A stretch of DNA of 16,909 bases from Myxococcota bacterium (GTDB taxonomy: Bacteria > Myxococcota > SpSt-1050). The translations under genes were made by a program, and so were the position numbers. This document shows, piece by piece, positions 1-15,740 of this stretch. The notes beneath the pieces were generated by a model, which searched no databases, was not told the DNA's origin, and saw nothing but the letters and a program-made list of their open reading frames with translations. Numbering within the stretch: position 1 is the stretch's first letter; the number at the start of each line of letters is the position of its first letter. The stretch lies in assembly GCA_049969675.1 (NCBI GenBank), contig JBMFOP010000052.1, positions 1 to 16,909 on the forward strand, read 5' to 3'.

Positions 1-831
1 GATGATAATATTTTTATGTTTGAACCGTATCGTTGTGAATCAATCAAGACCCAGAAGGCTGTTGAAGTAAAGTATTTTACAATGGATGAAAGACGAGAAG
101 AGCTATATTATGCCGATTTTCAGAAAAAAAATCTTGTGAAATTGAGTATGAAAGATCTGTCAATTATAAAAGAAGCGGATATCTATGGAATCTCTCCACA
201 AATGGTATCCGATGAGAACTCTGACTATATATTTCTTATTTATGACCAGCCACTATGGATAGAAAAGAGAAGAAAATCAGATCTTATGGCAGAACTGAGA
301 CTGGATGTTCTAAGGTCTGATGTGTGTGGATTTGGTAGTATTGGAATCTCTCTCTCTTTAGGCGGAGGTCATAGTTTATTCGCCTCCTTTATTAATTGCA
401 AAAGAGGTATAATTGAGATAGATATATCCAATCTTTACCCTGTTAAATTATTAGAACCAGAAGATAAAATTAACTGGTATATTGCCACCTCACACATCAA
501 TAACTCCCTATATGTAGCATATCCGTCAAGAAATTATATTTCAGAATATGATTTAAAGAGTTTAACTCTCAAAAGACATATTAATGCTGGTTTTGGTATC
601 AGGTTTATCTTAGAATCTTATGATGGTAAATTGCTATATGCGGCTGATTATTTGACCGGGAAAATATATATAATTGATATTATAGGGAACAAAATACTTA
701 ATATTTATCAATTTGGCAGAAAGACCTATGCTATAGCAGAACATCCATTTACTCATAATATCTTTGTGGGTGGGCCTGCCGGTATCTGGGAAATAGAATT
801 TGAAGGCGATAATGAAAAGCAAAAACACTAA
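1..831 (+). CDS. YVTN/YncE-like beta-propeller protein, probably 5'-truncated by the window edge
   Basis: The frame is open from base 1 (GAT GAT AAT ATT TTT ATG), so ATG16 is probably internal. Repeated blade-like motifs: LYYADFQKKNLVKLSMKDL, LYVAYPSRNYISEYDLKSL, DGKLLYAADYLTGKIYIIDI, HNIFVGGPAGIWEIEF. Stop TAA at 829-831. Confidence 0.7.
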   Translation, partial: DDNIFMFEPYRCESIKTQKAVEVKYFTMDERREELYYADFQKKNLVKLSMKDLSIIKEADIYGISPQMVSDENSDYIFLIYDQPLWIEKRRKSDLMAELRLDVLRSDVCGFGSIGISLSLGGGHSLFASFINCKRGIIEIDISNLYPVKLLEPEDKINWYIATSHINNSLYVAYPSRNYISEYDLKSLTLKRHINAGFGIRFILESYDGKLLYAADYLTGKIYIIDIIGNKILNIYQFGRKTYAIAEHPFTHNIFVGGPAGIWEIEFEGDNEKQKH

Positions 832-2290
832 AATTGTATTTGTCAGACCTATAAGCCCTCTTGGATATTATGCCAGAGTAAATATGCAACATCCAATAAA
901 TTTATGCCTCCTCGGGGCTATCGTAAAAAATGCTGGTTTTGTACCATATATATATGACTTTGAAGTTGAGGGTAATGACGAGAGTAAGTTTATCAAATTT
1001 ATTATTGATAGAGAGATAGATGTTGTTGGGTTCTCCTGTACAACTCCACAGATAAAATTTGCAGACAGACTCTCCGGAAAAATAAAGAGATTAATGCCAG
1101 ATATAAAATGTGTTGTTGGCGGTGCCCATATATCTGCAATCCCAAAAGAGACATTTAATGAATTTCTAAATTTTGATGTCGGTTTTGTAGGTGAGGCAGA
1201 TAATAGTATTGTTGAATATTTAAAATGTTTGGAAAAAGGCGAAGAATTTTATAACATCGCAGGAATTGTTTTTAGAAGAGATAATGAAATCATTTTTAAC
1301 CAGAATCCAGAGAGAATAAGAGATCTGGGAGATGTATTCCCTGCCAGAGACCTTTTAAGCATGAATAAGTATATGCACCTAAATAAATTTAAAAATGTTG
1401 CTGCACCCGGTGTGTATAAACCAGATATCAGGGCTACCCAATTAATACTTTCTCGTGGATGTATCTTTAATTGTCTCTTCTGCTCAAATGTATCTAACTT
1501 TAATGAAAGGAAAAATATTCCAAAAATTGTTGTAAGAAATATCCAGTCTATAAAGGAAGAAATACTGGATTGTAAATATAGATTTGGGATAAACCACTTC
1601 TCCGTTCAGGACGAACTCTTTCCTGCAAATAGAGATTTGTTGCATGAATTCTGTCGTATAATGGAGCAGGAAAAACTGACTTTTAACTGTAATTCAAGAA
1701 CAGATATATTAAGACTGGAAGATTATTATTATATGAAAAGGGCTGGTTGTCTACAAATAGGATTTGGAGTGGAGTCTGGCAGCGAAAGGATATTGAGGCT
1801 TATAAACAAAAGGCAGACAATTGATAAAATTGCAAATGCCTTTGATATGGCTAAAAGGGCTGGGATAAGAACTGTTGGTTATTTCCTGATTGGTTCTCAT
1901 CCAGATGAAAATGAAGAGGATATTATTGAGACTATAAAATTCATTAAATATATAAAACCCGATTTGATTACCTGTACCCTTGCAGTGCCATATCCCGGCA
2001 CTCAACTTAGGAATATACTTAAAGAAAAGGGATTGATATTCTCAAATGATTGGGATAAGTATGCATATTATTCACCTGAGCCTGTATGGAGAACTTTTCA
2101 TTTCAGCAGTAATGACCTGTTGGAACAACAATATAGAGTATTAAGAAGCCTTTATTTATCACCCAAATATATTTTACAGAGGTTAAAAGTTTTAGCATCA
2201 CCTTCCGAATTATTGATGTTATCAGAAGGTGGTTTACGAATGATAAAATTTTTATATGGAAGGTACAGGAAGAAGAATATGCATAAATAG
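812..2290 (+). CDS. Cobalamin-dependent (class B-type) radical SAM enzyme #1, B12-binding + radical SAM domains
   Basis: N-terminal B12-binding Rossmann features (HPINLCLLGAIV, DVVGFSCTT, VVGGAHIS, GEAD). CxxxCxxC motif SRGCIFNCLFC (nt 1460-1483), then QDELF, GVESGS, YFLIG, PYPGT. ATG812 preferred over TTG800 because GAAGG lies upstream; 20-nt overlap with the previous gene. Confidence 0.9.
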   Translation: MKSKNTKIVFVRPISPLGYYARVNMQHPINLCLLGAIVKNAGFVPYIYDFEVEGNDESKFIKFIIDREIDVVGFSCTTPQIKFADRLSGKIKRLMPDIKCVVGGAHISAIPKETFNEFLNFDVGFVGEADNSIVEYLKCLEKGEEFYNIAGIVFRRDNEIIFNQNPERIRDLGDVFPARDLLSMNKYMHLNKFKNVAAPGVYKPDIRATQLILSRGCIFNCLFCSNVSNFNERKNIPKIVVRNIQSIKEEILDCKYRFGINHFSVQDELFPANRDLLHEFCRIMEQEKLTFNCNSRTDILRLEDYYYMKRAGCLQIGFGVESGSERILRLINKRQTIDKIANAFDMAKRAGIRTVGYFLIGSHPDENEEDIIETIKFIKYIKPDLITCTLAVPYPGTQLRNILKEKGLIFSNDWDKYAYYSPEPVWRTFHFSSNDLLEQQYRVLRSLYLSPKYILQRLKVLASPSELLMLSEGGLRMIKFLYGRYRKKNMHK

Positions 2291-3580
2291 ATGGAGTATT
2301 TAATGAAAATTCTAAATAAGAACATTGATAGACAATCATTACTCTTAAAGATACTCAATATGGAAGGAGAACCAGAAGATGGATATGGAGTATATTTTCA
2401 TATAAAAGGGAGAAAGATATTAGATTTATGGGGAGCCTATGGGGCAAATGCCCTTGGCTATAATAATGAGATGTTGTGTAATTCTCTCATGTCTTTTCTA
2501 AAAGAAAATAGACCAAATGTAGTCTTCCCTTTTGAAAGGGAGGTCACGAAGAGGCTTGAGAGTGAACTTGGCAGAGTAAGTGGCTCTATATATACAAAAT
2601 CTATATTTACAACAGGCGGCTCGGAATCTGTTGAGACAGCATTAAAGATTGCATCCACTATAAACAGAGATAAGTATTACTTTATAACATTTGAAAATTC
2701 TTTTCATGGCAAGAGTATAGGGTCTCTATCTGTAACAATGCAACCCGAGATCAGAAAGGATATCCCATTATTAAAAAATGTATTGTTTTCCCGATATAAT
2801 GATACCATTTCGTTTGAAAAGATTCTTGATAAAGAGAAGAAAAATGTTGCAGCAGTTATATTAGAACCGATACAGGCAAATGGGGGAATAATTGAGGGAA
2901 ACGAATCATTTTTAAGTAAAGTCTCTGAACTATGTAAGAGGCACAATATCATTTTGATTGACGATGAGGTCTCTACAGGTTTGGGTAGAACCGGTAAATG
3001 GTTTGCATTCCAACAGTATACAAAGTTTAATCCAGACATCATATGTATAGCAAAACATCTGGGAGGAGGGCTATTCCCTCTGGGTGCATCAATGATTTCA
3101 AAAGATATTTTAAGTAGATACAATTTAGATACAATTTCATTATCTTTTACATTTTCATCACAATCTATTGCCCATTATATTGGATGTAAAGTCATTGAAT
3201 TTATTGAATCAAACAATTTACTATCTAATGTTGAGAAAATCGGTAGCTATCTGATAGACGGGTTGAAGAGAATAAAAGAGAATTTTCCTGATAGGATTAT
3301 GGATGTAAGAGGCAGGGGATTGATTATTGGCATTGAACTTCACCCATTTATTTATAAAAAGTTACCCAATATTTATACCCTTGCAGTTATAAGGGAATTG
3401 TTTGTAAATCACAATATTCTTGTTGGCTTAACCTCCTCCAATCCCTCTGTTATCAGGTTACATCCACCATTTATAATAAACAGAGAGCAAGTAGATGAAT
3501 TTTTAAATGCACTTGCAAAGGTATTGAGCAAGAATCCCTTATCTCTGATAGGAAATTTAATAAAAAACGGGATATTATAG
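2291..3580 (+). CDS. Class III PLP-dependent aminotransferase (ArgD/PatA/HpnO-like fold; substrate unknown)
   Basis: LDLWGAYGANALGY, GSESVETALK, NSFHGK, LEPIQANGG, DDEVSTGLGRTG, PLP-Lys in DIICIAKHLGGG, DVRGRGLIIGIE, VIRLHPPFII. ATG abuts the previous TAG. Alternative start ATG2303 has GGAG at 2293-2296. Confidence 0.9.
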   Translation: MEYLMKILNKNIDRQSLLLKILNMEGEPEDGYGVYFHIKGRKILDLWGAYGANALGYNNEMLCNSLMSFLKENRPNVVFPFEREVTKRLESELGRVSGSIYTKSIFTTGGSESVETALKIASTINRDKYYFITFENSFHGKSIGSLSVTMQPEIRKDIPLLKNVLFSRYNDTISFEKILDKEKKNVAAVILEPIQANGGIIEGNESFLSKVSELCKRHNIILIDDEVSTGLGRTGKWFAFQQYTKFNPDIICIAKHLGGGLFPLGASMISKDILSRYNLDTISLSFTFSSQSIAHYIGCKVIEFIESNNLLSNVEKIGSYLIDGLKRIKENFPDRIMDVRGRGLIIGIELHPFIYKKLPNIYTLAVIRELFVNHNILVGLTSSNPSVIRLHPPFIINREQVDEFLNALAKVLSKNPLSLIGNLIKNGIL

Positions 3581-3590
3581 TGTTTTAATC

Positions 3591-4997
3591 ATGACTGAAA
3601 AGAAAGGTATTTTACTATTGATTCCATATTATAATATGTCTCGCATAATGAGGGTGTTGCCAGAGATGCCAGAGAGATTTGAGGGGAATATACAGATGTA
3701 CCCTTTTTTAGGGGTGTCATATATTGCCTCTTCTCTCATAAAGGCTGGATTTAATGTAGAACTCATTGACTCTACTGCCGAAAGAGTATCAATCCACGGG
3801 ATATTAGAAATTATAAAAGAAAAAAATCCCTTATTTGTAGGAATTTATGTAAATAGCTTTTTATTACACTCTACTTATTATATTATTAAAATGATAAGAG
3901 AGAATTTTAATGTTCCAATTGTCGTTGGAGGTCCTCACATCACATCTATAAAAGGATTTGAAGAGACCTTAGGTGCGGACTATGGCATTTATGGTTATGC
4001 AGAATCAGACATTGTTGAACTGGCAAACTTGATCAATGAGCAATCTGCAAATAATAGTTATAAGTTAAAAGATGAGGCTAATGATGTCTTTGATATTAAC
4101 TCTATTCCATTTCCATTCAGACCAAAGAAATTTAAAAAAATTTATTATTCCCCATTTTATAGAGGGCCAATAACTACAATGATAGCTTCAAGGGGGTGCC
4201 CATTTAAATGTAGATTTTGTGCGTCTTCCATTCTGGGAAGATATCAGAGAAGGGATGTAGAAAATGTTATAGAAGAGATAGAATGTGTAATTAAAGACGG
4301 ATATAAGGTAATTCAATTTCAGGATGATACATTTAATATTGATAAAAAATGGCTCCACAAATTATGTGAAAAAATAATAACTAAGGGTATTAATAGAAAA
4401 ATTATATGGGATTGTAATATAAGGCCAGACCTGATCGCCGCGGAGGATATCCATTTAATGAAACAGGCTGGATGTAGAATGATCAGGTTTGGTGTAGAAT
4501 CATTTAGCGACTACCTGAGAAATGATATATCAAAAAAGGGATTTACCATTGCACAAATAGAAGATGTAATAAATCTTGCTATTAGATATGGAGTAAAGAC
4601 ATTAGGCTATTTTATGATTGGACTGCCATTTGAAACAGAACAGGATATTCAAAAAACTATAAATTATATAAAATCTTCAAAATTTAATTATGTTGATATA
4701 TCTATTGCTACAATATTGCCTGGTACCGATTTTGAGAGAATGGCTATTGGACAAAATCTGATAAGCAGTATAGTATGGAACGAGGTAGCAATAAATGGGA
4801 GAGAGATGCCAGTCTTTACCAGTAGTTCTTCGCTGAATCAACTGAGAAATTTCCAGAAGAATGCATTATATGGATTTTATCTTAACCATAATTTCATTTT
4901 TCGTGAGATAATATCTTCTTCTTTAGAAAGAAGATTTTTAAACTCTTTGCGGACAGCCAGTACATTATTTCGCCATTATCTTTTTAATGATTTTTGA
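3591..4997 (+). CDS. Cobalamin-dependent radical SAM enzyme #2
   Basis: YPFLGVSYIASSL, IVVGGPHIT, SRGCPFKCRFC (nt 4197-4220), QDDTF, GVESFS, YFMIGLPFET, LPGT. Confidence 0.9.
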   Translation: MTEKKGILLLIPYYNMSRIMRVLPEMPERFEGNIQMYPFLGVSYIASSLIKAGFNVELIDSTAERVSIHGILEIIKEKNPLFVGIYVNSFLLHSTYYIIKMIRENFNVPIVVGGPHITSIKGFEETLGADYGIYGYAESDIVELANLINEQSANNSYKLKDEANDVFDINSIPFPFRPKKFKKIYYSPFYRGPITTMIASRGCPFKCRFCASSILGRYQRRDVENVIEEIECVIKDGYKVIQFQDDTFNIDKKWLHKLCEKIITKGINRKIIWDCNIRPDLIAAEDIHLMKQAGCRMIRFGVESFSDYLRNDISKKGFTIAQIEDVINLAIRYGVKTLGYFMIGLPFETEQDIQKTINYIKSSKFNYVDISIATILPGTDFERMAIGQNLISSIVWNEVAINGREMPVFTSSSSLNQLRNFQKNALYGFYLNHNFIFREIISSSLERRFLNSLRTASTLFRHYLFNDF

Positions 4998-6473
4998 TAG
5001 CATTATCTTTGGAATATTTTTATAGTAATTTTCTATATAAGAAAGCCAGGAGTAATCTGGAATTGAGATAATAGATAAAAGGTAAAATAGGTATCTTAAA
5101 CTGTATGGAAAATATATATCTTTCCTCAAGGCATTTATTAGCATTTTTGAAATATATTCTGGTAGAGAACCAGAGGAAAGTAATGCGATCTCAGCATTTT
5201 TCAGTGATATCTTATCTTGATACATATCACTTTTATGCCCCATCAGGTAATATGTCGTCTCACCAGAGTTTATCTTATTATTGATAATATCTTTCTCTTC
5301 GGCTTTGGTGACATATTCAATTATTTCTGTCTTTGGATATAAAGAGAGCCAATATACATTTACCATCTTTAATCTCTTAAATCTGGTATAGAAAATGGCG
5401 TTATCAAATAGTTCATTTGTATCTTCTTCCGGTAGCCCGATTATCTGGTCAGCACTATATGAAATTTTTGCCCTATCAAGGATAGTAAAACATCGCTCTA
5501 TATCTTCATTAGTCTCAAATCTCTTTAGATATTTTCTCTTAATTATGGGGTTTAATGTCTGTACCCCCAGTTGAACCCTATAACAACCGGCATTTTTTAA
5601 TGACCTTGCAATATCCTCATCAATAAATTTGGGATGTGTTATTATTGAGAATGGCTTTTTAATATTGGTTTTGTACTGTGATAGAAATTCAAGAACCCAT
5701 TTTTTATTGAATGTGAATATGTCATCATTGAAGTGAACAGTCTTATAATTATATAGCCTTTTTGCGGTTAATAACTCAGAGATTACACTTTCAATGCCTC
5801 TCTGCCTAATTTTATTGAAACCAAGTAATTTATGTAAATAATTATAACAACAATAACTGCAATTGTATGGACAACCCCTTGAACACATAGTTCTGTAAAT
5901 ATCTTTTGAGATGAAACCAGTTGAGTAAAACAACTCTTTGTCCAGAAAAGGTAGGTCATCAATATTGTGGATAGGTTCTGGATCAGGTCCTTTAATTATC
6001 TCGCCATTTTTGGTTTTAGACCATAGCCCCTCAATCTGTTGAAGTTTTTCATTATTGTTAATATTTGCTATTAGCTTCTGGATACTATACTCAGCCTCAC
6101 CCATAAGGAGAAAATCTACTGCACCTTCTTTAATTACAAATTCTGGAACAAGGGTTGGATGAATACCACCAAACAAAATTCTGATGTCCGGATTGATTGC
6201 TTTTATCCTCTCCGCGATTCTCAGATTCCATTTGTAGTTGTCAGTCATTGATGAAAAGCCAATTATATCGGGCTTATTTTCCAATGATTCTCTGATAACC
6301 TCGTCCTCACGAGATACCAATTTATAAAGAACTGGATAATGAACTGTATTAAAATCCGCAAAAAATGCCGGGTCAAAAGAGAGGGTTACATTATGACCAG
6401 AATTTTTTAACACAGATATCAGAGATTCCACACCGAGATTCTCTGCTCCCATACATATAAAGTGAATGCGCAT
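4965..6473 (-). CDS. Cobalamin-dependent radical SAM enzyme #3
   Basis: ENLGVESLISVLK, DIIGFSSMT, FGGIHPT, GEAE, SRGCPYNCSYC, NDDIF, GVQT, IIGLPEE. The likely start is ATG6473 (MRIHFIC...), 1 nt after the upstream TAG (6477-6475), rather than the ORF-track start at 6524. Confidence 0.9.
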   Translation of the reverse strand: MRIHFICMGAENLGVESLISVLKNSGHNVTLSFDPAFFADFNTVHYPVLYKLVSREDEVIRESLENKPDIIGFSSMTDNYKWNLRIAERIKAINPDIRILFGGIHPTLVPEFVIKEGAVDFLLMGEAEYSIQKLIANINNNEKLQQIEGLWSKTKNGEIIKGPDPEPIHNIDDLPFLDKELFYSTGFISKDIYRTMCSRGCPYNCSYCCYNYLHKLLGFNKIRQRGIESVISELLTAKRLYNYKTVHFNDDIFTFNKKWVLEFLSQYKTNIKKPFSIITHPKFIDEDIARSLKNAGCYRVQLGVQTLNPIIKRKYLKRFETNEDIERCFTILDRAKISYSADQIIGLPEEDTNELFDNAIFYTRFKRLKMVNVYWLSLYPKTEIIEYVTKAEEKDIINNKINSGETTYYLMGHKSDMYQDKISLKNAEIALLSSGSLPEYISKMLINALRKDIYFPYSLRYLFYLLSIISIPDYSWLSYIENYYKNIPKIMLSKIIKKIMAK

Positions 6474-6474
6474 T

Positions 6475-7896
6475 CTAATCTTTATACCTGTTAAAGATAA
6501 TTTTTGTAAATATCCCAAGTCCACCCAACAATGTGTGAATATCTGGAATAGCCTTAAAAATTCTCAGGGCCTGTTTTGGCCTTAAATAGAATGATAGTAT
6601 TGCCGATTTGTGTAGTTTATTCAGGGTCTCTGTCTTAACAGCACTGATATTTGTAATTGGTGAGTAATATCTAATATTGTCTGTATTGAGTGCCTCCAGC
6701 AATATCTGTCTTTTGACATCCTCTGGACACATCTCAAATAGTTCTGTCCCGAGGTGTGGGGCGACTTTAAAGAAGGAGGCTGTATGTATAGGAAGGCCCA
6801 TGGCAAAGGTTATGGTCTTTTTAACCTCCTCTTCGGTCTCTGTGGGAAATCCGAGCATAAAATATCCATGAAGTATTATTTTATGTTTTGAGAGCAACTC
6901 CACATTTTCTCTTAGCCTCTCAAGGTCAAGACGCTTTTTGATCAGTTTCTGGATCCTCTCAGAGGCGCTTTCAACAGCGATGGAAACATATGATGTATTA
7001 TGTTGCCCAAGAAATTCAATAAAGTCCTTACTCAGGATATCTGTCCTCAATCCATTGGGGAATAAAAATTTCTGTTGGGGGTCAATACTTAGAATGCCTT
7101 TCAATATCCTCTTTGCCCTTCCCTCGTCAATATTAAATATGTCATCGTATATCTCAATCTCCTTTGAAGAATACCTCTTTGTAAACTCCTGTACATAACT
7201 TATTATCTTATTCTCTGGAATAAACCTCACCCGCTTCCCAAATATCCCATGACAGTATACGCAGGAGTATGGACAGCCCCTTGATGTAATAAGGGGTAGA
7301 TATGGTCTTATCCCAGCAAGCTCAAAGCCCATATAATTGAAATAATCCCTTAGATTTATAGAATTAAGGTCTGGTAGAGGGATGTCCTCTTCTTTAAGGA
7401 TGGCATCCTCTATGGGATTGAAAATGACTTCACCGTCTTTTCTATAAATTAGGGAGGGTATAGAGGATAGACTGTTTTTCCCTTCTGTAATATTCTGGAT
7501 TAAGAGTGTAAGTGGAATCTCTCCTTCATTGGAGATGGCATAGTCTATATTTTTGTTTTTCAATATCTCCTTTTTGACAGAGGATATAACAGGTCCACCC
7601 ACAACGATAGGAACAGACGGGAATGACTCCTTCAATAGATTGCAGACTTGATTTATAAGGTAGTAATTTTTCATCATGCCGGAGATCCCAAATAATAGAG
7701 GTTCTCTCCCCTTATATTTTTTTGATACAGTACCCGGCACATCCTTATTAATAGCAAAGTCATATACATCAAAGTTGAGCCCTGATATTCTCTCTTTTAA
7801 GTAAGTTATGAGAGAAGCGATCCCGAGAGGTGGCACAATGTTTACTGGTTTATATGGTTCATAAATTCTTAAAAATACTATCCTGCCAGTATTCAT
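6475..7896 (-). CDS. Cobalamin-dependent radical SAM enzyme #4
   Basis: PPLGIASLITYL, VVGGPVIS, EGE, SRGCPYSCVYC, YDDIF, PNGLRTD, AVESAS, YFMLGFPTET, PHLGT, FYLRP. ATGA overlap with the upstream UbiA-family gene (7896-7893). Confidence 0.9.
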   Translation of the reverse strand: MNTGRIVFLRIYEPYKPVNIVPPLGIASLITYLKERISGLNFDVYDFAINKDVPGTVSKKYKGREPLLFGISGMMKNYYLINQVCNLLKESFPSVPIVVGGPVISSVKKEILKNKNIDYAISNEGEIPLTLLIQNITEGKNSLSSIPSLIYRKDGEVIFNPIEDAILKEEDIPLPDLNSINLRDYFNYMGFELAGIRPYLPLITSRGCPYSCVYCHGIFGKRVRFIPENKIISYVQEFTKRYSSKEIEIYDDIFNIDEGRAKRILKGILSIDPQQKFLFPNGLRTDILSKDFIEFLGQHNTSYVSIAVESASERIQKLIKKRLDLERLRENVELLSKHKIILHGYFMLGFPTETEEEVKKTITFAMGLPIHTASFFKVAPHLGTELFEMCPEDVKRQILLEALNTDNIRYYSPITNISAVKTETLNKLHKSAILSFYLRPKQALRIFKAIPDIHTLLGGLGIFTKIIFNRYKD

Positions 7897-8714
7897 AAAT
7901 AAATCACTTTAAAACAAAATATTGTATTAATCAAGACAATTAAAAATAGCCAACTGTCATTCAAAAGGATCTCAAATGGTGAAAGATGGTTATTTATTTT
8001 GATAAGATAATAGTAGAATCTCAATATACCAATCATATGAAAAAATACACTTAAAATAATGATAATAGGTAAATGTAGATTTATAAGAAACAGGAAGTTT
8101 AAGATTATACTCAAAGGGGAGAGGATAAGGTATATATTCATAACAGAGTGGCTCTCTATATCACGACTCTCTCGTTTTATCCTCTTTGCAAGTGCTACAA
8201 GAATCGCGATAGTGAATATCCACAATAACATATTTATATCTGGTTTATGGTGAATGCACTCAAAACCCGCAATAATTCTGAGAATAAAGCCAGTAGAGAC
8301 TGTAATAGCATCTATCAAAAAGAATTTTTTTAGCCTCCAACTATAAAGGATATTTATAAATATAAAAAGCAAAATCAGAAATAGTATCTTTGGAGATGGA
8401 CCAATGATGTTCAGAAAGACGAGGGTCACAGATAAAACAATTATAAGCATAATTGCTTCTGGAATCTTTAATTCACCATTTGGAATAGGCCTGAACCTCT
8501 TCCTCGGGTGTCTTTTATCCTCTTTCCTATCAAAGATATCATTTATGGTATATATTATAAACGCAGCAAATGTAAATTTTACAAAGACCCATAATAATTC
8601 ATATAATATGGTTTTATTAAAAATATACCCGTAATAAAACGCGGGAAGCAAAATTGCAAAGTTCTTCAATATATGCAGTGGCCTGATCTGTCTTATATAT
8701 ATAGAAAGTCTCAT
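7893..8714 (-). CDS. UbiA-family prenyltransferase, polyprenyl-phosphate phosphoribosyltransferase (DPPR synthase, mycobacterial Rv3806c-like)
   Basis: IRPLHILKN, NDIFDRKEDKRHPRKRFRPIPNG (NDxxDxxxDxxHPxKxxRP signature), YSWRLK, GFILRIIAG, LAKR, C-terminal PFEILLND, multiple hydrophobic TM segments. Confidence 0.8.
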   Translation of the reverse strand: MRLSIYIRQIRPLHILKNFAILLPAFYYGYIFNKTILYELLWVFVKFTFAAFIIYTINDIFDRKEDKRHPRKRFRPIPNGELKIPEAIMLIIVLSVTLVFLNIIGPSPKILFLILLFIFINILYSWRLKKFFLIDAITVSTGFILRIIAGFECIHHKPDINMLLWIFTIAILVALAKRIKRESRDIESHSVMNIYLILSPLSIILNFLFLINLHLPIIIILSVFFHMIGILRFYYYLIKINNHLSPFEILLNDSWLFLIVLINTIFCFKVIYL

Positions 8715-8749
8715 ATATAGGACATCCCTTTATCATTTATATACTGGTC

Positions 8750-8772
8750 TTGCAAATGAAAGTAATTTGCAA
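8750..8772. repeat. Perfect 8-bp inverted repeat TTGCAAAT-N7-ATTTGCAA in the divergent intergenic region (candidate operator)
   Basis: TTGCAAAT at 8750-8757, spacer GAAAGTA, ATTTGCAA at 8765-8772, read directly from the sequence. Function is inferred. Confidence 0.55.
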
Positions 8773-8794
8773 TTTTATAGTTATATGTTATACT
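8767..8794 (+). promoter_or_regulatory. Putative sigma70 promoter for the 8820 operon
   Basis: -35 TTGCAA (8767-8772), 16-nt spacer, extended -10 TG-T-TATACT (8786-8794). Confidence 0.55.
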
Positions 8795-8806
8795 CATCCT
8801 GCTTTA

Positions 8807-8815
8807 TAAGGAGGT
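8807..8815 (+). promoter_or_regulatory. Strong Shine-Dalgarno site
   Basis: TAAGGAGGT ending 4 nt before ATG8820. Confidence 0.85.
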
Positions 8816-8819
8816 CTGT

Positions 8820-9575
8820 ATGAAAAGTATTTACATTGTGATTATTTCAATGCTGGCAATTATCTCTGCGATATTTATTTACTGTTCTGGTAATAGCAAT
8901 CCATCAGATGATACAACAGGTGATGTAGGCATCAAACCATCTTCCCAGATATGCCCCAAACTACCTAAGTGTTTCAATAATGCCTATCCACCATTTATTG
9001 GTTATGATAAGGCATCCTGTATGAAGACCATAAATACATTTGATGAGGCACTTATTCAGGAATTGCTGGATGCAAATGGGGACTGCGACCAATACAAAAA
9101 TCTGCTTATGGACTTTCAACTTACAGAAGGGTGTAAGGTATTGCAGGCGTGTCTTGATGCAAAGATATTCAATGAAAGGTTGGGAGGCAGTATAGATGGA
9201 TGTAAGGATGTTCTAAAGACAGAGAATATCTCCCTGGAGCTTGAGCAATGTATTTATTCAGCATATAGAAATAATAACGACTGTAATGGTGTTAACCTGT
9301 GTATCAATATCGCACAGGCTGATGTGGGTTTTGATACGATATTTACTGATACGGGAGTAGAAAAGGCTTGTGTTACAGATACAGATTCATACAACTGCGA
9401 ATTTGTCTGTGATAAATTCCACTCCTGCACCAATCTCTACTGTCCACCGGAGAATGGAGATTGCACCAGAGATGATTGTATTAACGGCTGCAAAGACCCT
9501 GTTGGACAATTTACAATTGAACTTATGTGCTGTCTGGCAGAGAAGAGCTGTGAAGAAATCTCACAATGTTATTAA
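8820..9575 (+). CDS. Cysteine-rich putative lipoprotein, unknown function
   Basis: MKS + hydrophobic stretch ending IFIY-C22 (atypical lipobox), followed by a S/T/D/G linker. 23 Cys in 251 aa (hand count), recurring C-x5-C units, strong RBS. Confidence 0.75.
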   Translation: MKSIYIVIISMLAIISAIFIYCSGNSNPSDDTTGDVGIKPSSQICPKLPKCFNNAYPPFIGYDKASCMKTINTFDEALIQELLDANGDCDQYKNLLMDFQLTEGCKVLQACLDAKIFNERLGGSIDGCKDVLKTENISLELEQCIYSAYRNNNDCNGVNLCINIAQADVGFDTIFTDTGVEKACVTDTDSYNCEFVCDKFHSCTNLYCPPENGDCTRDDCINGCKDPVGQFTIELMCCLAEKSCEEISQCY

Positions 9576-9585
9576 GAATGGCTGA

Positions 9586-12075
9586 ATGTCTATATCAGTT
9601 ATTATACCTGTATATAATGAGTCAGGTGTAATTGAATCCGTCCTCAAGGATTTAATTGAAAGTAGAAGAAATATAAATGCTCTGATTGATGCTGAGATTA
9701 TATTCGTAGATGATGGAAGCACAGATGATACGGCAAAAATAATAAAATCATCAAAAATCTCTAACTCAAAAATAATATCAACTCCACATATGGGGCTCTC
9801 ACATGCCCTATATACCGGGATAATGGCTGCATCTAAAGACATAATAGTAACCATTGATGCTGACGGGCAATTCTCTTTTGAGGATATACCCAGATTTTTA
9901 GAGAAACTTGAGAGTGAGAATGCGGATATTGTAACAGGTTATCGCATAAAAAGAAATGACAATATTATAAGGAAAATTAGTTCACTTATTGCAAACTTTT
10001 GTAAAAGATTAATACTAAACGATAATGTAAGGGATTCTACCTGCACACTCAAGGCATTTAAGAGGGAGGTGAGGGATAAGATATTATATTGCTTTGATGG
10101 ATTTCACAGATTTATACCCTCATTTGCCATAATGAATGGATTGAAAGTTGTTGAAATCCCTGTTGTGCATAAGAATAGGATTGGGGGAACTGCGAAATTC
10201 GGGATAATAAACAGAATCCCCGATGTAATAATTGATATCTTTGGAGTGAGATGGCTCAAATATAAGAGATTCTCCCCTGATTCTGATGAGAGGAGATTCT
10301 CCTTTTATCCTGATATCTTCTTTATAATTCTACTCCTATCAGTTGTAATCGGTCTCTTTAATGGGTATTTCAGAGTTATTGATGACTTCTGGCTATATGG
10401 CTCTTTAAACAGATTTATTGGATATGACTATTCAAAGAGCTACGGTTGGGAGAACTTCATATTTAATGAGATTGTGCCACCCTTGATAAGAATAATTTAT
10501 GCATCCTTTATGAACATTGGAACGGTAATAGGCGTAAAGTACCCTCTTGAATGGACAAATAAGGTGATAGGAATTTCAATTCTATTACTCTCTTATATAC
10601 TTTTTACTAAATTTTTCAATTCTCATACCAGAAGGCATCTGGCAAAGTGGGTTGCCTTCTTAATCGTCTTTTATGGGGTTGTATCTTCCGAGATATATTC
10701 CGGACTTGCGAGGTCATTCTCCTATATCCTTATACCAGCCCTTTTGATAGCATTTGAAAAAAGGTCCTTAATTGCCATTTCTTCAATAACACTTCTCACT
10801 GCACTTTTATACCCGGTCTTACTCCCACTCTTCTTTATCTTTATAATGATTGGTTATCTTCTTTATGATATCAGACATCTGTTTCATTCAATTCTTCCTA
10901 TCATTAGTGGATTGCTGGGACTTTTGCCGATGTTGTTGAGGATAGATCTAACAAAATTTAGTCCTCCAGATGCAGGGGATTCTTTTCTTAATCAGACACA
11001 TATATTTGAGTTGCCGATTTCATCAAATTTACATCTTCTCTCTGGTTCTCTAACCGATCTGGGGGTAGTTGAATGGATAAATTTTAATTTTTTGCATCAA
11101 TGGATTTTGAGTGATAATCTCAGGGATATTATCGGGATTATGCTCACTCTCTTCTTTTTACTTGCTGTTTTGAGAAGAATTTTGAGAAGAGAGAGAGAAC
11201 GGATAGATATTGCAACTTTCTTTTTGCTCTTTATATTCTATATTGTTGGATTATTTCAGAGAGAATATACAGATATAGCCTATGTCTTCAAATGGGGAAT
11301 CTTCTTCTCAGCAGTATATATAACCATTGGAATAATCAGGCCTGAATTGATCAGGAGATATAGAACTATTTTCATACTCTCAATCTCTGCCCTTATCTCT
11401 TTTTTTATTACACATTTGCTCTCAACTAAATTTGGATTTGGTGTCCATGAGCCCGGCAGACAGATACAGAGGGCATTTGCAATCATCTTTCCATTCCTCT
11501 CATCTGCACTTTTCTATTCTTCATTTGTGAGGGCAGGGGACATTCTTAAACCAATTGTAATCTTTATAATCTTTATAATCGTATGTATCTTCTACCCACA
11601 ACTCAAACTCGTAAGCCCTGTTGATAGATATGTGATTGAGCGAATCTCATCCCTTAATAAGGGGTCTTTAATACTTTCTCATCCACTCACTGCAAACTGG
11701 ATTGTCTCACATACAGATAAATATTCCACAATCATTGATGAGCAGATAAGGGTAACAAAGACAAATCCTATCAGAGGCTCAAAAGAGACCATTATGCCAA
11801 CAGAGATGGCTGCCCTGATTTTAGGTATATATTATACTAATGATTTCAATAGAGCAGTTAATTGGTGTAAAAGTAAGAGCGATACATACATTCTGGTTGA
11901 GGAATATTATTATAGCGAAAGTTTTTTCAATTTACATAGAGAGCCTTACTACTCATTTGTAGAGCGAAATAATCCCTCAAAGGATTTTGCACTTCTAAAG
12001 ATACCACTTGATCTGAGACACCCTATTACCCCGGAGGCATTTTTAATATCCTGTGAAGAGATGACAGAGAGATGA
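9586..12075 (+). CDS. Fusion protein: GT2 polyprenol-phosphate glycosyltransferase (DPM1/ArnC-like) + multi-pass GT-C-like membrane domain
   Basis: aa 1-~228: ISVIIPVYNE, VDDGSTDDT, DADGQ (DxD), GFHRFIP, HKNRIGGTAKFG. The remaining ~600 aa have many TM helices, an acidic DD pair right after the first TM (VIDDFW, nt 10381-10386) and a C-terminal soluble domain. The GT2 call is strong; the GT-C call is inference. Confidence 0.75.
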   Translation: MSISVIIPVYNESGVIESVLKDLIESRRNINALIDAEIIFVDDGSTDDTAKIIKSSKISNSKIISTPHMGLSHALYTGIMAASKDIIVTIDADGQFSFEDIPRFLEKLESENADIVTGYRIKRNDNIIRKISSLIANFCKRLILNDNVRDSTCTLKAFKREVRDKILYCFDGFHRFIPSFAIMNGLKVVEIPVVHKNRIGGTAKFGIINRIPDVIIDIFGVRWLKYKRFSPDSDERRFSFYPDIFFIILLLSVVIGLFNGYFRVIDDFWLYGSLNRFIGYDYSKSYGWENFIFNEIVPPLIRIIYASFMNIGTVIGVKYPLEWTNKVIGISILLLSYILFTKFFNSHTRRHLAKWVAFLIVFYGVVSSEIYSGLARSFSYILIPALLIAFEKRSLIAISSITLLTALLYPVLLPLFFIFIMIGYLLYDIRHLFHSILPIISGLLGLLPMLLRIDLTKFSPPDAGDSFLNQTHIFELPISSNLHLLSGSLTDLGVVEWINFNFLHQWILSDNLRDIIGIMLTLFFLLAVLRRILRRERERIDIATFFLLFIFYIVGLFQREYTDIAYVFKWGIFFSAVYITIGIIRPELIRRYRTIFILSISALISFFITHLLSTKFGFGVHEPGRQIQRAFAIIFPFLSSALFYSSFVRAGDILKPIVIFIIFIIVCIFYPQLKLVSPVDRYVIERISSLNKGSLILSHPLTANWIVSHTDKYSTIIDEQIRVTKTNPIRGSKETIMPTEMAALILGIYYTNDFNRAVNWCKSKSDTYILVEEYYYSESFFNLHREPYYSFVERNNPSKDFALLKIPLDLRHPITPEAFLISCEEMTER

Positions 12076-13409
12076 TTGGAATAAAAGATATACCTTTTTT
12101 GATACTAATATTAATTCTGGCTACATTACTCTTTTTCCTCTTCGTAGACAAAAGGCCCTTTACCGATGAGGGTTCGTTCTGTACAATCGCAGAGGCTATA
12201 TCAAATGGTTCGGTACTTTACAGAGATATATACAACGAGAAGGCTCCAATTCCATATTTCCTTGCTGCCCTGTTTGTAGATACAAATGGGGATAATATTA
12301 AAATATTGAGAAAGATCTCTTTTGTTGCGTTCTTATTTTGCATCCTTCTCTTATATCTCTTATTAAAAAAGAATGGACTGACAATTTTACAGACCTTTTT
12401 TATCTCTGTATTCTATATCCAGACCGCCCCGCTCTTTCAATCATTCAACTATACATCGGAGATTCTATCATTACCAATCATCCTGTTTATAATCAATCGC
12501 CTCTATATTATTGAGAGGAGCAAAGTGAATATTATTATTGGGTTTCTTACAATAATTCTGGTCTTTATTAAACAGCCTTTTATTCTCTTCTCCCTTTTAA
12601 TAATGATATTTGCACTTTCTTCTCCAAATATCAGAAGGCATTTTTTTATAGGTGTTTTGTTCGGTATCGTATTTATATTCCTTTTACTGCTTATAACAAA
12701 GTCCTTCTTACCATTTGTTGAAAACCTCTCTTTTATCGCACATCACTTAAATTTAAGAGATTATGCGCGGTTGCCATATAGAGTAGAATATTATCAGTTC
12801 ATATTGATTCTGGTTCTGTCTACTTTTTTGATTTACCATTATTTCAAAAAGAATCTGAAATTGATTCATATTCTGTTAGCATTGAGCCTCCTCCCTCAGG
12901 GGATGGTGAGAATGGATGCATTTAAGTTGCTTCCATTCTTTACTGTTCTGATTATAATGATTGCCAGATTGAGTATTATAGAGCAGGTGAAGAATCTATA
13001 CATTATTCTCCTTATCCTATCTGTCACCCCTGTCTGGTTTTATAGAGATATCTTAAATCAGAATTTTGATAGTATTAAAAGTATCAGTTATACAGTTGAG
13101 ACAAAGACAGATAAAAAGGATTCAATCTGGGTTGCACCACACGAGGCAAATATATATTGTCTCTCTCATAGAAGACCCTCCTCCAGATTCTTCTTTCTAC
13201 TCCCCTGGATAAGTAAATCAGAGGTCTTTCTTACTCTTATTGAAGACCTTGTAAGAAGAGACCCTCCAGAGTGCATCGTGGATGTCTCAAAATTTAATAA
13301 TGCGACTACATATAATCTTTCTGATATGTTCGCAGAATTTGGGGAAATTATAAAAAATTATAAGGATGTTATGGAGATTAATGGAGCAATAATCTATTGT
13401 AAGAAATAA
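12072..13409 (+). CDS. GT-C fold membrane glycosyltransferase (ArnT/PMT-like)
   Basis: TM1 followed by RPFTDEGSF...NGSVLYRDIYNEKAP (DE pair at nt 12165-12170), FIKQP, many TM segments and a C-terminal soluble domain (IYCLSHRRPSSRF). ATGA-coupled to the upstream gene. Confidence 0.75.
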   Translation: MIGIKDIPFLILILILATLLFFLFVDKRPFTDEGSFCTIAEAISNGSVLYRDIYNEKAPIPYFLAALFVDTNGDNIKILRKISFVAFLFCILLLYLLLKKNGLTILQTFFISVFYIQTAPLFQSFNYTSEILSLPIILFIINRLYIIERSKVNIIIGFLTIILVFIKQPFILFSLLIMIFALSSPNIRRHFFIGVLFGIVFIFLLLLITKSFLPFVENLSFIAHHLNLRDYARLPYRVEYYQFILILVLSTFLIYHYFKKNLKLIHILLALSLLPQGMVRMDAFKLLPFFTVLIIMIARLSIIEQVKNLYIILLILSVTPVWFYRDILNQNFDSIKSISYTVETKTDKKDSIWVAPHEANIYCLSHRRPSSRFFFLLPWISKSEVFLTLIEDLVRRDPPECIVDVSKFNNATTYNLSDMFAEFGEIIKNYKDVMEINGAIIYCKK

Positions 13410-13699
13410 TGGGAGTAAATATGGATAAGATAAATCTGGATTTCTGGCTAATCTTTGGTCTTCTCGGACAGTTTGTATTTTTTTTAAGATTCTTTCTCCA
13501 GTGGATAGTTAGTGAGATAAAGAAGAGAAGCACAATTCCAGATGTGTTCTGGTATTTGAGTCTTCTGGGTGGGATAACATTATTTATTTATGCCATTCAT
13601 AGGGAGGATATTGTATTTATTATAGGTCAGGGAGGCGGCCTAATTATTTATACAAGGAATATTATGTTGCTTAAGAAGGGGAAGAAGGAAACTATATGA
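13409..13699 (+). CDS. Stand-alone lipid-A-disaccharide synthase N-terminal (LAB_N) domain membrane protein
   Basis: GLLGQFVFFLRFFLQWIVSE...IPDVFWYLSLLGG...YAIHREDIVFIIGQ is the characteristic LAB_N pattern. TAATG overlap at 13409; alternative start ATG13421 has GGGAG at 13411-13415. Confidence 0.85.
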   Translation: MGVNMDKINLDFWLIFGLLGQFVFFLRFFLQWIVSEIKKRSTIPDVFWYLSLLGGITLFIYAIHREDIVFIIGQGGGLIIYTRNIMLLKKGKKETI

Positions 13700-15138
13700 G
13701 ATTCCTCTTTCTACAGGATACAATTGATTCAGAGTCAATAGGTCTCTCTTATATCTCTGCTGTGCTTAAAAAAGCAGGTCATACTACCGAGCTTTACATC
13801 GCATCACTTGAGAACAATCTATTTGAAAAAATAAATGACTATTCTCCAGATATTATTCTGTTCTCTGTGATTATTACGAAACAGGATTTTTACAATAGGC
13901 TTGGCATCATTTTGAAGAGGAAATTTCCAGACATAAAGATAATTATAGGTGGCCCTTATGTTACACTGAAGAACGCTTATGCAAAGAATGATTGGGTTGA
14001 TTTTGCAATAATTGGTGAAGGAGAGGATGCTATAATTGATCTAATAGAGGCACTTGAAAATGGAAAGGATTTCAGAAAAATAAAAAATCTGGTTTACAGA
14101 GAGGGTGATAAGCTGATTGTAAATGAATTGCGGGATTTGAAAGAGGATTTAGATAGTCTGCCTATTCCTGATAGAGAATTGTATTTAAAGTACAGGTCTT
14201 TTAAGGACCTCACTGTGAAACGTTTTATAAGTGGCAGAGGGTGTCCATACTCATGTACATTCTGTTTTGCAAGAAGATTGAGAGATATGTATCATCAGAA
14301 GGGAAAATATGTAAGAAAGCATTCGGTGGAGAGGGTCTGTGAAGAAATCAATATTATGAGAGAAAAGTCTGTGCTCAATACTGTTCATTTCTCTGATGAC
14401 ATTTTTCTGACCGATAAGAGATGGCTGGAAAGATTTGCAAAACTCTATCCAGAGGAGGTTGGACTGCCATTTCAATGTAATCTAACGGCAAAGACAATTG
14501 ATGAAGAGACTATAAGGCTCTTAAAGGGTTGTGGGCTTAGAGGTGTGGGTATAGGGCTTGAGTCGGGAGTTGAGAGAATTAGAAATAATATTCTTGGGAA
14601 GCGTTTCTCAAATGAGGAGATAGAGGAGGTTTCAAGAATACTTCATAAATATAAAATTGAAATTTATACATACAATATGATAGCACTTCCTGAGGAGAGT
14701 ATTGAGGATGCAATCTCCACGCTTGAATTGAACAGACATATGAAAATTAAAATAACTCAATGCAATATTGCTATTCCTTTTGAGGGATTACCTCTTACAG
14801 ATATGGCAATTCAAAATTCTTTGCTTGAAGATACGTCAGTTGTATTCAATATGAATAAAAGACCTGAATCTCCAATCATAAAGGTTGAGGTCAAAGAGGA
14901 GTTTGAGAGGTTATTCCTTCTCTTTCCATTTCTGGTAAAGGCAAAGATTTCAACAAAGATTATTAGAATGTTGTTGAAACTTCCCTTGAATTTTATATAT
15001 AGAATGCTTCATAAAATCAGTTATATTTTAAATATGAAAAGGTATTATGATATCTCTTTAATCTCTGGATTGAGGATTTTCTTTGATATAAGAAGAGGGG
15101 AGAGATATTTAAAAGACTTTTTTAAGAGAGAGAGATGA
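13696..15138 (+). CDS. Cobalamin-dependent radical SAM enzyme #5
   Basis: ESIGLSYISAVLKKAGH, IIGGPYVT, GEGE, DLDSLPIPDR, GRGCPYSCTFC, SDDIF, GLESG, YNMIALPEES. ATGA overlaps at both ends. Confidence 0.9.
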   Translation: MRFLFLQDTIDSESIGLSYISAVLKKAGHTTELYIASLENNLFEKINDYSPDIILFSVIITKQDFYNRLGIILKRKFPDIKIIIGGPYVTLKNAYAKNDWVDFAIIGEGEDAIIDLIEALENGKDFRKIKNLVYREGDKLIVNELRDLKEDLDSLPIPDRELYLKYRSFKDLTVKRFISGRGCPYSCTFCFARRLRDMYHQKGKYVRKHSVERVCEEINIMREKSVLNTVHFSDDIFLTDKRWLERFAKLYPEEVGLPFQCNLTAKTIDEETIRLLKGCGLRGVGIGLESGVERIRNNILGKRFSNEEIEEVSRILHKYKIEIYTYNMIALPEESIEDAISTLELNRHMKIKITQCNIAIPFEGLPLTDMAIQNSLLEDTSVVFNMNKRPESPIIKVEVKEEFERLFLLFPFLVKAKISTKIIRMLLKLPLNFIYRMLHKISYILNMKRYYDISLISGLRIFFDIRRGERYLKDFFKRER

Positions 15139-15740
15139 GCCAACTTTTAATATTGCTATCTCTGCTTCTACCTATAAGTAGTGGAGAGATACCACTCGGC
15201 TGTATGGAGGATGAAAATCCAATCAGGCTCAACTATCCATTCTTTACAATACCAGTGGGTAAGAAGGTGATGTACAATGAAAAATGTGATAAAAAGCATT
15301 ATTTAAGTCAAAAACTACTTGATGAGATTTCTCCTTTAAATGGATTTACTGGATTGAAGAAAGAGAGTTCATCTGTTGTATTAAATAAAGATAGACAGTC
15401 AATAAAAAGATTCTATACAACATCAAACCTAACGCCTTATTATGGGATTAAGATTACAAAGGCAAAATTGAATATCATTAATAAGATTATGATAGCTCTT
15501 GAGAGAGAGTACGGAGATGGACTATTTTTACTGGTTTTGAGAAATGATAATGGAATGTTTGCAAGACAGATTATTGTTGATGAAATTAAGTGTGCAGTAG
15601 AGGTGATAATACCTGTTGCTGAATTTTTCCAGATACCTTATAAAGAGGGGGATTTCCTTGATGCAGAGTATCAGATTGAATTATATCTGATCAATTATAA
15701 TAAAATGAAATGGAAGTTTGTTGGGTTTGAAATAGAGTGA
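15135..15740 (+). CDS. Hypothetical exported protein
   Basis: 201 aa with a short hydrophobic N-terminus (MSQLLILLSLLLPISSG). Coupled by ATGA upstream and GTGA downstream. No recognisable family. Confidence 0.6.
   Translation: MSQLLILLSLLLPISSGEIPLGCMEDENPIRLNYPFFTIPVGKKVMYNEKCDKKHYLSQKLLDEISPLNGFTGLKKESSSVVLNKDRQSIKRFYTTSNLTPYYGIKITKAKLNIINKIMIALEREYGDGLFLLVLRNDNGMFARQIIVDEIKCAVEVIIPVAEFFQIPYKEGDFLDAEYQIELYLINYNKMKWKFVGFEIE

Follow-up and report, generated by a model that had tools for sequence, protein, structure and literature searches.

Five radical SAM genes with B12-binding domains in a lipid-carrier glycosylation locus of a Myxococcota bacterium: a core operon within a strain-variable island

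We analyzed a stretch of 16,909 nucleotides from a Myxococcota bacterium, namely bases 1-16909 of contig JBMFOP010000052.1 (22,497 bases, called C52 below); this whole stretch is the window. It encodes five radical S-adenosylmethionine (SAM) enzymes with a B12-binding domain, R1 to R5, among genes for glycosylation on lipid carriers. Relatives of R5 recurrently lie beside glycosylation genes, and the enzymes may act on lipid-linked sugars. The source genome (G000; 3.05 Mb, 39% GC) was compared with three congeners (G001, G002, and G003) and with a further genome, G004, outside these four genus genomes. The tree tool labels the congener loci Myxococcota.

By gene order, the window falls into three co-directional blocks, on the forward strand (1-4997), on the reverse strand (4965-8714), and again on the forward strand (8820 onward), and the five enzymes are spread over all three, as the initial annotation had described. 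The first block opens with the 3' part of a beta-propeller membrane-anchored protein cut by the start of the contig (1-831). This protein has weak propeller hits and is 38% identical to a G001 protein of 496 amino acids, which sits directly upstream of the R2 orthologue in that genome. It is followed by R1 (812-2290; 492 amino acids from the ATG at 812), a class III pyridoxal phosphate (PLP) aminotransferase (2291-3580; PF00202, E 2e-79, PLP lysine K255), and R2 (3591-4997; 468 amino acids). The reverse block carries R3 (4965-6473; 502 amino acids from the ATG at 6473, 519 from the GTG at 6524), R4 (6475-7896; 473 amino acids), and a relative of polyprenyl-phosphate phosphoribosyltransferase (DPPR synthase) in the UbiA family (7893-8714). 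The third block starts with a cysteine-rich secreted or lipid-anchored protein (the lipoprotein; 8820-9575). It continues with a protein joining an ArnC/DPM-like family 2 glycosyltransferase (GT2) domain to a polytopic membrane domain of a rare type, ~590 amino acids long (9586-12075; PF00535, E 8e-29), a predicted GT-C glycosyltransferase of the PMT_2/ArnT type (12072-13409), the small LAB_N membrane protein (13409-13699; PF07578, E 1e-29), and R5 (13696-15138; 480 amino acids). At its end are a protein of 201 amino acids with a signal-like N-terminus (15135-15740), a membrane-anchored SGNH/GDSL protein that may be an O-acyl transferase or an esterase (15737-16666; PF13472 over cut-off), and the start of a polytopic membrane protein of 477 amino acids (16671-16909). 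The lipoprotein, the 201-residue protein, and the 477-residue protein have no family hit. The neighbours listed in the initial annotation (aminotransferase, DPPR-synthase-like UbiA, GT2 fusion, GT-C-like protein, and LAB_N) are thus all in place. We also agree with it that the locus offers no other obvious employment for these enzymes: the 14 window proteins scanned include no polyketide synthase, nonribosomal peptide synthetase (NRPS), or tetrapyrrole gene, and the sole gap longer than 15 bases (8715-8819) holds no credible gene for the precursor of a peptide that is made on the ribosome and modified after translation (RiPP).

All five enzymes match PF02310 (45-68 bits, cut-off 32) and PF04055 (68-85 bits, cut-off 29.5), their frames are open, and the CxxxCxxC motif is intact in each (CIFNCLFC in R1). 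The prediction of five intact radical SAM genes with B12-binding domains is therefore borne out. Since they are mutually only 25-31% identical, they are old paralogues and not fresh tandem copies. In a quick tree, R3 and R5 form a clade (SH-aLRT 86) inside a larger one with support 97, and R4 is sister to a protein of the G002 island described below (40% identity, support 100). We compared them with the NCBIfam equivalogs for BchE, HpnJ, HpnR, PhpK, AprD4, the ladderane B12 radical SAM enzyme, and MgmA. None of the five reached a named cut-off: the best scores were 122-155 bits against cut-offs of 360-750 (BchE 87-155 versus 481, HpnJ 108-132 versus 578, PhpK 69-124 versus 600, ladderane-type at most 146 versus 360, AprD4 44-88 versus 500). 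The best hits were lipid or tetrapyrrole models, BchE, HpnJ, and rSAM_ladder_B12. Nine further paralogues in G000 likewise stay below the cut-offs. No model named after HpnP, GenK, GenD1, Fom3, OxsB, or GrsA/B was among the NCBIfam hits listed; of these proteins, OxsB was compared by fold.

The accessible part of PMC9204698 gives GG, GE, and a downstream GxS as motifs of class I cobalamin radical SAM enzymes. GG is found in R1-R5, and GE together with the Ser of the downstream motif in R1 (as GFS), R3, R4, and R5. In R2, GY replaces GE, GIY replaces GxS, and there is a gap of ~12 residues; GE is kept in the R2 orthologue of G001 (43-45% identity), and the Ser position varies in other paralogues too. 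The AlphaFold model of R5 (pLDDT 96) is closest to AprD4 (6FD2; Z 27.9, rmsd 3.4, 404 aligned) and MgmA (9CCB; Z 27.4, rmsd 3.4, 378 aligned), followed by CysS and OxsB (Z 25.6), and it also aligns over its length to TsrM and TokK. Because AprD4 and MgmA match R5 equally, the fold is compatible with methylation, dehydration, and ring contraction alike, and with or without use of cobalamin; in the accessible part of PMC12931638, AprD4 and ArsL share this architecture yet bind no cobalamin. Methylmalonyl-CoA mutase is present in all four genus genomes and a CobS match in none of them, from which it follows that the genus would scavenge cobalamin. In two metagenome loci (L067 and L108) a related radical SAM gene adjoins a TonB-dependent receptor and DUF6580, the latter also found in L056. 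The best NCBIfam hit of the L108 receptor, the one scanned, was the B12 receptor, below cut-off, and these neighbours are possibly a cobalamin uptake module.

The forward genes from the lipoprotein to the 477-residue membrane protein, with overlapping starts and stops, form a core operon. It is whole in G000, G001, and G002, and present from the GT-C gene onward in G003, whose contig begins inside that gene. Orthologues of the lipoprotein are 37-38% identical in G001 and G002, and those of R5 (66-72%), the 201-residue protein (41-45%), the GDSL protein (59-62%), and the last membrane protein (55-59%) occur in all three congeners. Each of the four genus genomes has one copy of LAB_N, immediately upstream of R5. 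The last gene of the operon (L001:672-2102) includes a stretch of N as assembled here; its TDSG and RYGP motifs are kept in congeners, and it may encode another GT-C. The remaining enzymes are far less conserved: R3 and R4 have relatives of 35% and 40% identity in G002, and the best match of R1 in congeners is at most 32%. UbiA was not found in the three congeners and is present in 140 of 401 genomes of the phylum. The aminotransferase, which scores below the ArgD, PatA, and PigE cut-offs, has no match in the three congeners at E<=1e-50. For two homologues, of 70% and 48% identity, the longest contig is as long as that of R5 homologues (25,576 and 51,113 bases), which suggests, without showing it, that it recurs in such islands elsewhere. 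Hence, R5 belongs to a genus-wide core operon, and R1, the aminotransferase, and UbiA are strain-specific. The set of paralogues differs from strain to strain, as in surface-glycan loci.

A strain-variable island of low GC content (33.7% in 1-8714 and 34.9% in 8820-16666, versus 39.0+-1.9% for 301 genome windows) extends beyond the window, which makes up its right-hand part. In G000, the island comprises 14 radical SAM genes with B12-binding domains on three contigs: C52 and the end of C44 have five each, and C110 has four. These pieces map onto the G002 island (orthologues 54-82%), which takes up 37 kb within a single contig and has 13 full-length genes of this type (12 with a PF02310 hit), one fragment, and one SPASM radical SAM gene. 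Alongside them are two GT2, two PMT_2-like proteins, a pair of beta-propeller membrane proteins, LAB_N and GDSL, and a CrtI-like oxidoreductase. Paralogues of the beta-propeller protein at the start of the window occur in both islands. In G001, the gene that is truncated at the end of C44 in G000 is followed by the beta-propeller gene and then by the R2 orthologue, and this synteny ties C44 to the start of the window. The lipoprotein gene is duplicated in G000 (window 8808-9349 versus C110:1-539, at the end of that contig; 85% DNA identity over 550 bases), and in G002 its only copy separates the C110-type block from the GT2 fusion. Most simply, the contigs would follow one another as C44, C110, C52, and window 1-8800 would be an additional block flanked by the two lipoprotein copies, which may bracket this insertion and explain the break in the assembly. 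We found no Rfam match in the 113 kb scanned and none in the island, and a promoter and terminator scan was at chance (22 versus 24.0 and 3 versus 2.6). Contigs of one public DNA run, possibly from the source sample, span 30 of 30 window bins, with no insertion or deletion listed. In this run (X1), there are ten clustered substitutions in R4 (window 7048-7101) and loose contig ends within the aminotransferase, R2, and GT2 genes (3506, 4140, and 9693-9725), a hint of strain variants of the island.

To see how general the linkage to glycosylation is, a 97-sequence alignment of R5 was scanned against metagenome contigs. At least 618 stretches matched, and 584 were confirmed among the matches listed; the best 80 of these 584 gave 79 loci (25-35% identity), whose neighbours were clustered and the representatives named by Pfam. 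A glycosylation family was present in 48 of the 79 loci, and in 39 of the 47 loci of at least 10 kb, among which 24 had a GT2 and 20 had at least two paralogues. Windows of 20 kb drawn at random from G000, where contigs are short, contain glycosylation genes in 23% of cases and GT2 in 4.8%. In 20 regions around other cobalamin-binding genes from 20 Myxococcota genomes, the figures are 4/20 and 1/20; the same profile hidden Markov models give 40/47 and 28/47 in the test loci, on which they were trained and which they thus favour. The initial annotation had expected homologues to be recurrently linked to glycosylation genes, and this is what we observe, although the linkage is not universal. Named relatives belong to Omnitrophota, Schekmanbacteria, and several archaeal groups. 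A search of genome contigs with R5 alone returned three loci, two of them from the congeners G001 and G003, and therefore adds no independent support.

The linkage extends to gene order. A short DPM-like GT2 is the direct neighbour of the radical SAM gene in 15 of the 24 loci holding both, versus 8.7+-2.0 when gene order is shuffled (p 0.003, GT2 being one of six families tested). There was no such excess for epimerases (3/23), DegT (1/13), GT4 (2/10), methyltransferases (1/9), or SPASM radical SAM proteins (4/13). The enzymes adjacent to a GT2, 16 in number, are 18-38% alike and dispersed in a FastTree phylogeny of 124 sequences of at least 330 amino acids (15 changes versus 15.3 shuffled), so they do not represent a single inherited operon. 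Fusions to GT2 and/or GT4 occur in 7 of 51 long homologues. At least 14 of the 79 loci have Pfam hits of the GT-C type (PMT_2, YfhO, AftD, TMEM260, PTPS-related, GtrII), in a scan that covered 55 proteins, namely membrane-rich singletons and representatives of families. Among plasmids, of the six matching records examined out of 14, three have sugar clusters, namely pDMC1 of Solidesulfovibrio magneticus, pDCAR1 of S. carbinolicus, and a plasmid of Roseibium. The first of these, from a cultured organism (NC_012797.1; L173 and L179), carries a DedA/VTT-GT2-GT2-B12 radical SAM arrangement plus GT-C, together with a GHMP kinase, a transketolase-like pair, GDP-fucose synthase, and DegT; a similar set occurs in L066 and L073. 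Across these data, the radical SAM family is not confined to glycans, and the link is strongest for clustered copies.

Within the window, the glycosyl-transfer module is recognized with varying clarity. The best NCBIfam hits of the GT2 domain are ArnC, PpgS, and dolichyl-phosphate hexose transferase, all under cut-off (ArnC 109 versus 529 bits). The protein at 12072-13409 has no Pfam hit of its own, and its assignment to GT-C comes from its orthologues: those of G001 and G002 pass the PMT_2 cut-off (PF13231), and the DE pair of the first loop (D32-E33) is conserved. In addition, Atlas places it with PMT_2 clusters, and a GT-C profile including seven PMT_2-like proteins matches ArnT (5EZM, E 4.5e-9). 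The membrane domain fused to GT2 belongs to a rare family with 10 representatives, mostly stand-alone and one other GT2-fused. Atlas language-model features place it at 0.97-0.99 to RgtA/PMT_2-like clusters, and the first-loop Asp is invariant. A 9-sequence profile had no PDB match and no match to the GT-C alignment (probability 2%), and the structural model, built on a 3-sequence alignment, is of low confidence (pLDDT 42.7); we regard a GT-C identity of this domain as a lead. LAB_N sits where a flippase is expected and may act as one; we found no literature on its function in a search mostly outside subscription papers. Across the whole genome, G000 counts 11 PMT_2 matches together with 10 genes for this type of GT2, and these could take up what 14 radical enzymes produce. 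The lineage is unusually rich in GT-C, with 11 PMT_2-type matches in 3 Mb in G000 and 10-13 per congener. LpxC is present in the genome, making lipid A a possible acceptor.

The PDB relatives of the UbiA protein are exclusively decaprenyl-phosphate phosphoribosyltransferase chains (8J8J, E 3e-15), and it keeps the KN, NDxxD-HPxK-RP, GFxLRxxAG, and KR motifs. It is shortened after KR, where ~20 residues (the HRxxLxxY-LDQ stretch) present in 12 of 12 aligned homologues are missing. No DprE1-family gene (ALO, PF04030) was matched in the five genomes G000-G004, the control in Corynebacterium being matched. Hence, the UbiA product, if the enzyme is active, would be a ribose and not an arabinose carrier. 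In 29 GC-rich loci with a DPPR-like UbiA, no B12-binding-domain radical SAM gene lay within 1.5 kb of it. A polyprenyl synthase and a UbiA of the ChlG/DGGGP-synthase type flank the island in G002 only (L008:390-2399, G002:C41).

Several established pathways were considered for the locus and set aside. The pathway had been presented as uncharacterized, and indeed none of the enzymes reached a cut-off for a known function; the bacteriochlorophyll (BchE) and ladderane assignments were rejected. A hopanoid pathway is dismissed by the squalene-hopene cyclase, found in none of the four genus genomes (completeness 85-100%) and present in G004, and an archaeal-type ether lipid by PcrB, equally missing from the four. 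The canonical arabinofuranose route lacks its DprE1-family gene in the five genomes. For a RiPP cluster, there is no room in the window, no shared small open reading frame was seen in the island gaps, and no PqqD hit was obtained among the scanned island proteins, the assembly gaps between C44, C110, and C52 being outside this view.

We put the probability at roughly 0.5 that the radical enzymes tailor lipid-linked sugar donors (polyprenol-phosphate sugars) on the cytoplasmic face, before flipping and transfer by GT-C. In this scheme, the GT2 domain would load a nucleotide sugar onto polyprenyl phosphate and, in this strain, UbiA may load phosphoribose. R5, coupled to LAB_N in the four genus genomes, and its paralogues are presumably soluble and would abstract hydrogen from the carrier-bound sugar. 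The sugar could then be C-methylated via methylcobalamin, or dehydrated or ring-contracted as by AprD4 and HpnJ, and the aminotransferase could aminate the resulting carbonyl. LAB_N would flip the product across the membrane, and GT-C, as its family relationships suggest, would transfer the sugar to an acceptor of the cell envelope, most likely lipid A/lipopolysaccharide core or the co-encoded lipoproteins; GDSL may acylate it. We consider this the best explanation because it joins the three-component scheme of periplasmic glycosylation and the HpnJ and Cds precedents, all discussed below, with the GT2 adjacency. For the unusual-sugar pathway, we infer the substrate, the type of reaction, and the dependence on cobalamin. 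The broader claim of the initial annotation, a single pathway with several radical steps, stands in part: the linkage to glycosylation supports it, yet the five do not make up a single pathway unit, given that R5 is core and that R1, the aminotransferase, and UbiA were not found in congeners. The nine further paralogues on C44 and C110 also count against such a unit. A more far-reaching version is a tentative and rather doubtful proposal. Here, batteries of up to 14 cobalamin radical enzymes would make strain-specific sugars (C-methyl-branched, deoxy, amino, or ring-contracted) while these are attached to polyprenol phosphate, LAB_N would be their flippase, and the present strain would use a ribose-based donor. 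This would be a widespread, undescribed envelope branch in anaerobes and candidate phyla, diversifying surfaces independently of oxygen.

A number of observations weigh against tailoring of lipid-linked sugars, besides the bias of the profiles mentioned above. The altered pocket motifs of R2 weaken the case for its use of cobalamin, and the window enzymes as a whole can be called cobalamin-dependent only presumptively. With 14 paralogues to a single GT2 and a single UbiA, the G000 island has more radical enzymes than one sugar would need; the window has no nucleotide-sugar enzymes; and the island includes a CrtI-like oxidoreductase, a pointer to lipid chemistry. Neither LAB_N nor the DPPR-like UbiA was found in the 79 metagenome loci, several sugar-linked loci hold soluble nucleotide-sugar pathways, so that a lipid-linked substrate is not required, and NRPS-type fusions are present in 29 of the 51 long homologues (P0142-P0171). 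Three of the six plasmid contexts are peptide, SPASM, or fatty-acid clusters. A close match was found in 12 of 200 other Myxococcota genomes. Outside the genus, glycosylation genes accompany 4 of 9 newly fetched loci (three from one family) versus 4/20 in the control (p 0.21), and four solitary copies have no such genes. Another of the nine has three paralogues, a SPASM enzyme, and GDSL with no recognized transferase. Three further Myxococcota loci carry YfhO/PMT_2, GT4, or GT2 genes, bringing the overall count to 7/12.

Some related loci deserve mention in their own right. Loci L020, L148, L151, and L152, from one Myxococcota family, share a conserved block of SIS, three tandem B12-binding-domain radical SAM genes, GT2, and two epimerases, with up to eight such radical SAM genes in 14 kb. 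In G001 (C93; L014:6421-19161), eight consecutive radical SAM genes, six of them B12-type and one fused to a methyltransferase, have no recognized glycosyltransferase alongside. In G000 itself (C33:117-2128; L004), a lone gene of the family lies directly after an unknown open reading frame of 185 amino acids, with a class III aminotransferase downstream of it; this may be a system of the peptide type.

Tailoring of lipid-linked sugars has to be ranked against other substrates. The next most probable, at clearly lower odds, is the lipid part itself: acyl or isoprenoid chains or a glycolipid head group would be methylated, cyclized, or cross-linked, and GT-C would merely glycosylate the product. 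Many paralogues suit a substrate with many carbons, the best NCBIfam hits are the lipid and tetrapyrrole models given above, the islands of G000 and G002 have the CrtI-like oxidoreductase, and a polyprenyl synthase with a second type of UbiA lies at the edge of the latter. Ladderane clusters, in the accessible part of PMC13459092, also pair a B12 radical SAM enzyme with a phytoene-dehydrogenase-like enzyme. However, squalene-hopene cyclase and PcrB/GGGP synthase are lacking in the four genus genomes, no fatty-acid synthesis gene is among the island proteins scanned, and the adjacency to and fusion with glycosyltransferases are specific. Somewhat less probable as substrates are soluble nucleotide sugars, or else an O-antigen or core oligosaccharide that is still growing, in which case the GT-C module would only use the sugar once finished. 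The presence of relatives in heptose, nonulosonate, and GDP-sugar clusters, the GT4 fusions, and the rank of AprD4, an enzyme of free aminosugars, among the top fold matches would fit this explanation. It is at odds with the island proteins scanned, which include no nucleotidyltransferase, epimerase, GT4, Wzx, or Wzy, and with an adjacency that is specific to DPM-like GT2 rather than to epimerases or DegT.

We consider it unlikely, and the least probable of these explanations, that the island is a hot spot of unrelated accessory genes, whose radical enzymes have proteins, peptides, or a small metabolite as targets, outside glycosylation. The mosaic and strain-variable content with one duplicated gene would be expected in such a place, solitary and peptide-linked relatives occur, the protein methylase MgmA ties for the best fold match, and there is a SPASM radical SAM gene in the island. 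Yet R5 overlaps LAB_N in a position kept in the four genomes, no common small open reading frame was seen by eye in 14 intergenic gaps of G000, G001, and G002, and the adjacency and fusion to GT2 arose repeatedly and independently. Hence, we rank tailoring of lipid-linked sugars ahead of the lipid core, then soluble nucleotide sugars, and then unrelated cargo.

To our knowledge, most B12-binding radical SAM sequences have no function so far, and nearly all characterized ones come from antibiotic, cofactor, and lipid pathways. A link to envelope glycosylation, if true, would provide a substrate class for a large part of the family. It would also imply unusual surface sugars in uncultured anaerobes, relevant as phage receptors, in immune or predator recognition, and as biomarkers, and it would offer enzymes with which sugars could be C-methylated site-selectively or edited in their rings. 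We found no description of islands combining B12 radical SAM, GT2, and GT-C genes, or of the pDMC1 cluster, in the literature searched, which mostly excluded subscription papers; the route is apparently undescribed and recurs in many microbes. Since pDMC1 belongs to a cultured bacterium, Solidesulfovibrio magneticus, the question is testable.

The known systems closest to the island each cover a part of it. Some radical SAM methylases act on sugars, the substrates of GenK, GenD1, and MoeK5. These three are listed as Csp3 methylases in the accessible part of PMC12931638. AprD4 (6FD2), a radical SAM 1,2-diol dehydratase on paromamine, is the top fold match of R5 and acts on a sugar, and the downstream aminotransferase would fit AprD4-type chemistry. 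In contrast, R5 is 15% identical to it, and four of the five window enzymes keep GG and GE, whereas AprD4 binds no cobalamin according to the accessible part of PMC12931638. MgmA, CysS, TokK, TsrM, and OxsB share with R5 the Rossmann domain and radical SAM barrel (Z 19.6-27.4), GG, GE, and CxxxCxxC. They differ in sequence (13-20% identity, 15% for OxsB), and the island has neither their antibiotic, peptide, or protein-target context nor the TokK-type Trp after the cysteine motif. The mycobacterial decaprenyl-phospho-arabinose route (DPPR synthase, DprE1/DprE2, and GT-C) resembles the window in having a DPPR-synthase-like UbiA near GT-C genes, but the genus has no DprE1 match, and its UbiA is shortened and found in this strain only among the four genus genomes.

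Two systems come closer to the proposed mechanism. ArnC/ArnT is one example of three-component periplasmic glycosylation. Such systems consist of a GT2 polyprenol-phosphate-sugar synthase, a flippase, and a GT-C, as in YkcC/YngA/YkcB in the accessible part of bioRxiv 10.1101/2022.02.03.479048. The core operon likewise holds an ArnC/DPM-type GT2, a small membrane protein, and a putative PMT_2/ArnT-type GT-C; unlike them, its GT2 forms a fusion with a second membrane domain, LAB_N takes the place of a GtrA-type flippase, and radical SAM genes are embedded. The other precedent is HpnI/HpnK/HpnJ, for hopanoid cyclitol ether, and the calditol synthase Cds, which combine GT2 and a radical SAM enzyme on a lipid-linked sugar; the accessible part of PMC13459092 proposes that HpnJ and Cds contract the rings of lipid-linked sugars. 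Here, the genus is without the hopanoid cyclase, a GT-C is present, there are 14 paralogues versus one, and the HpnJ score stays far below its cut-off. By analogy, it is an even bet that the island works like HpnI/HpnJ grafted onto an ArnC/ArnT-type system, being a member of neither.

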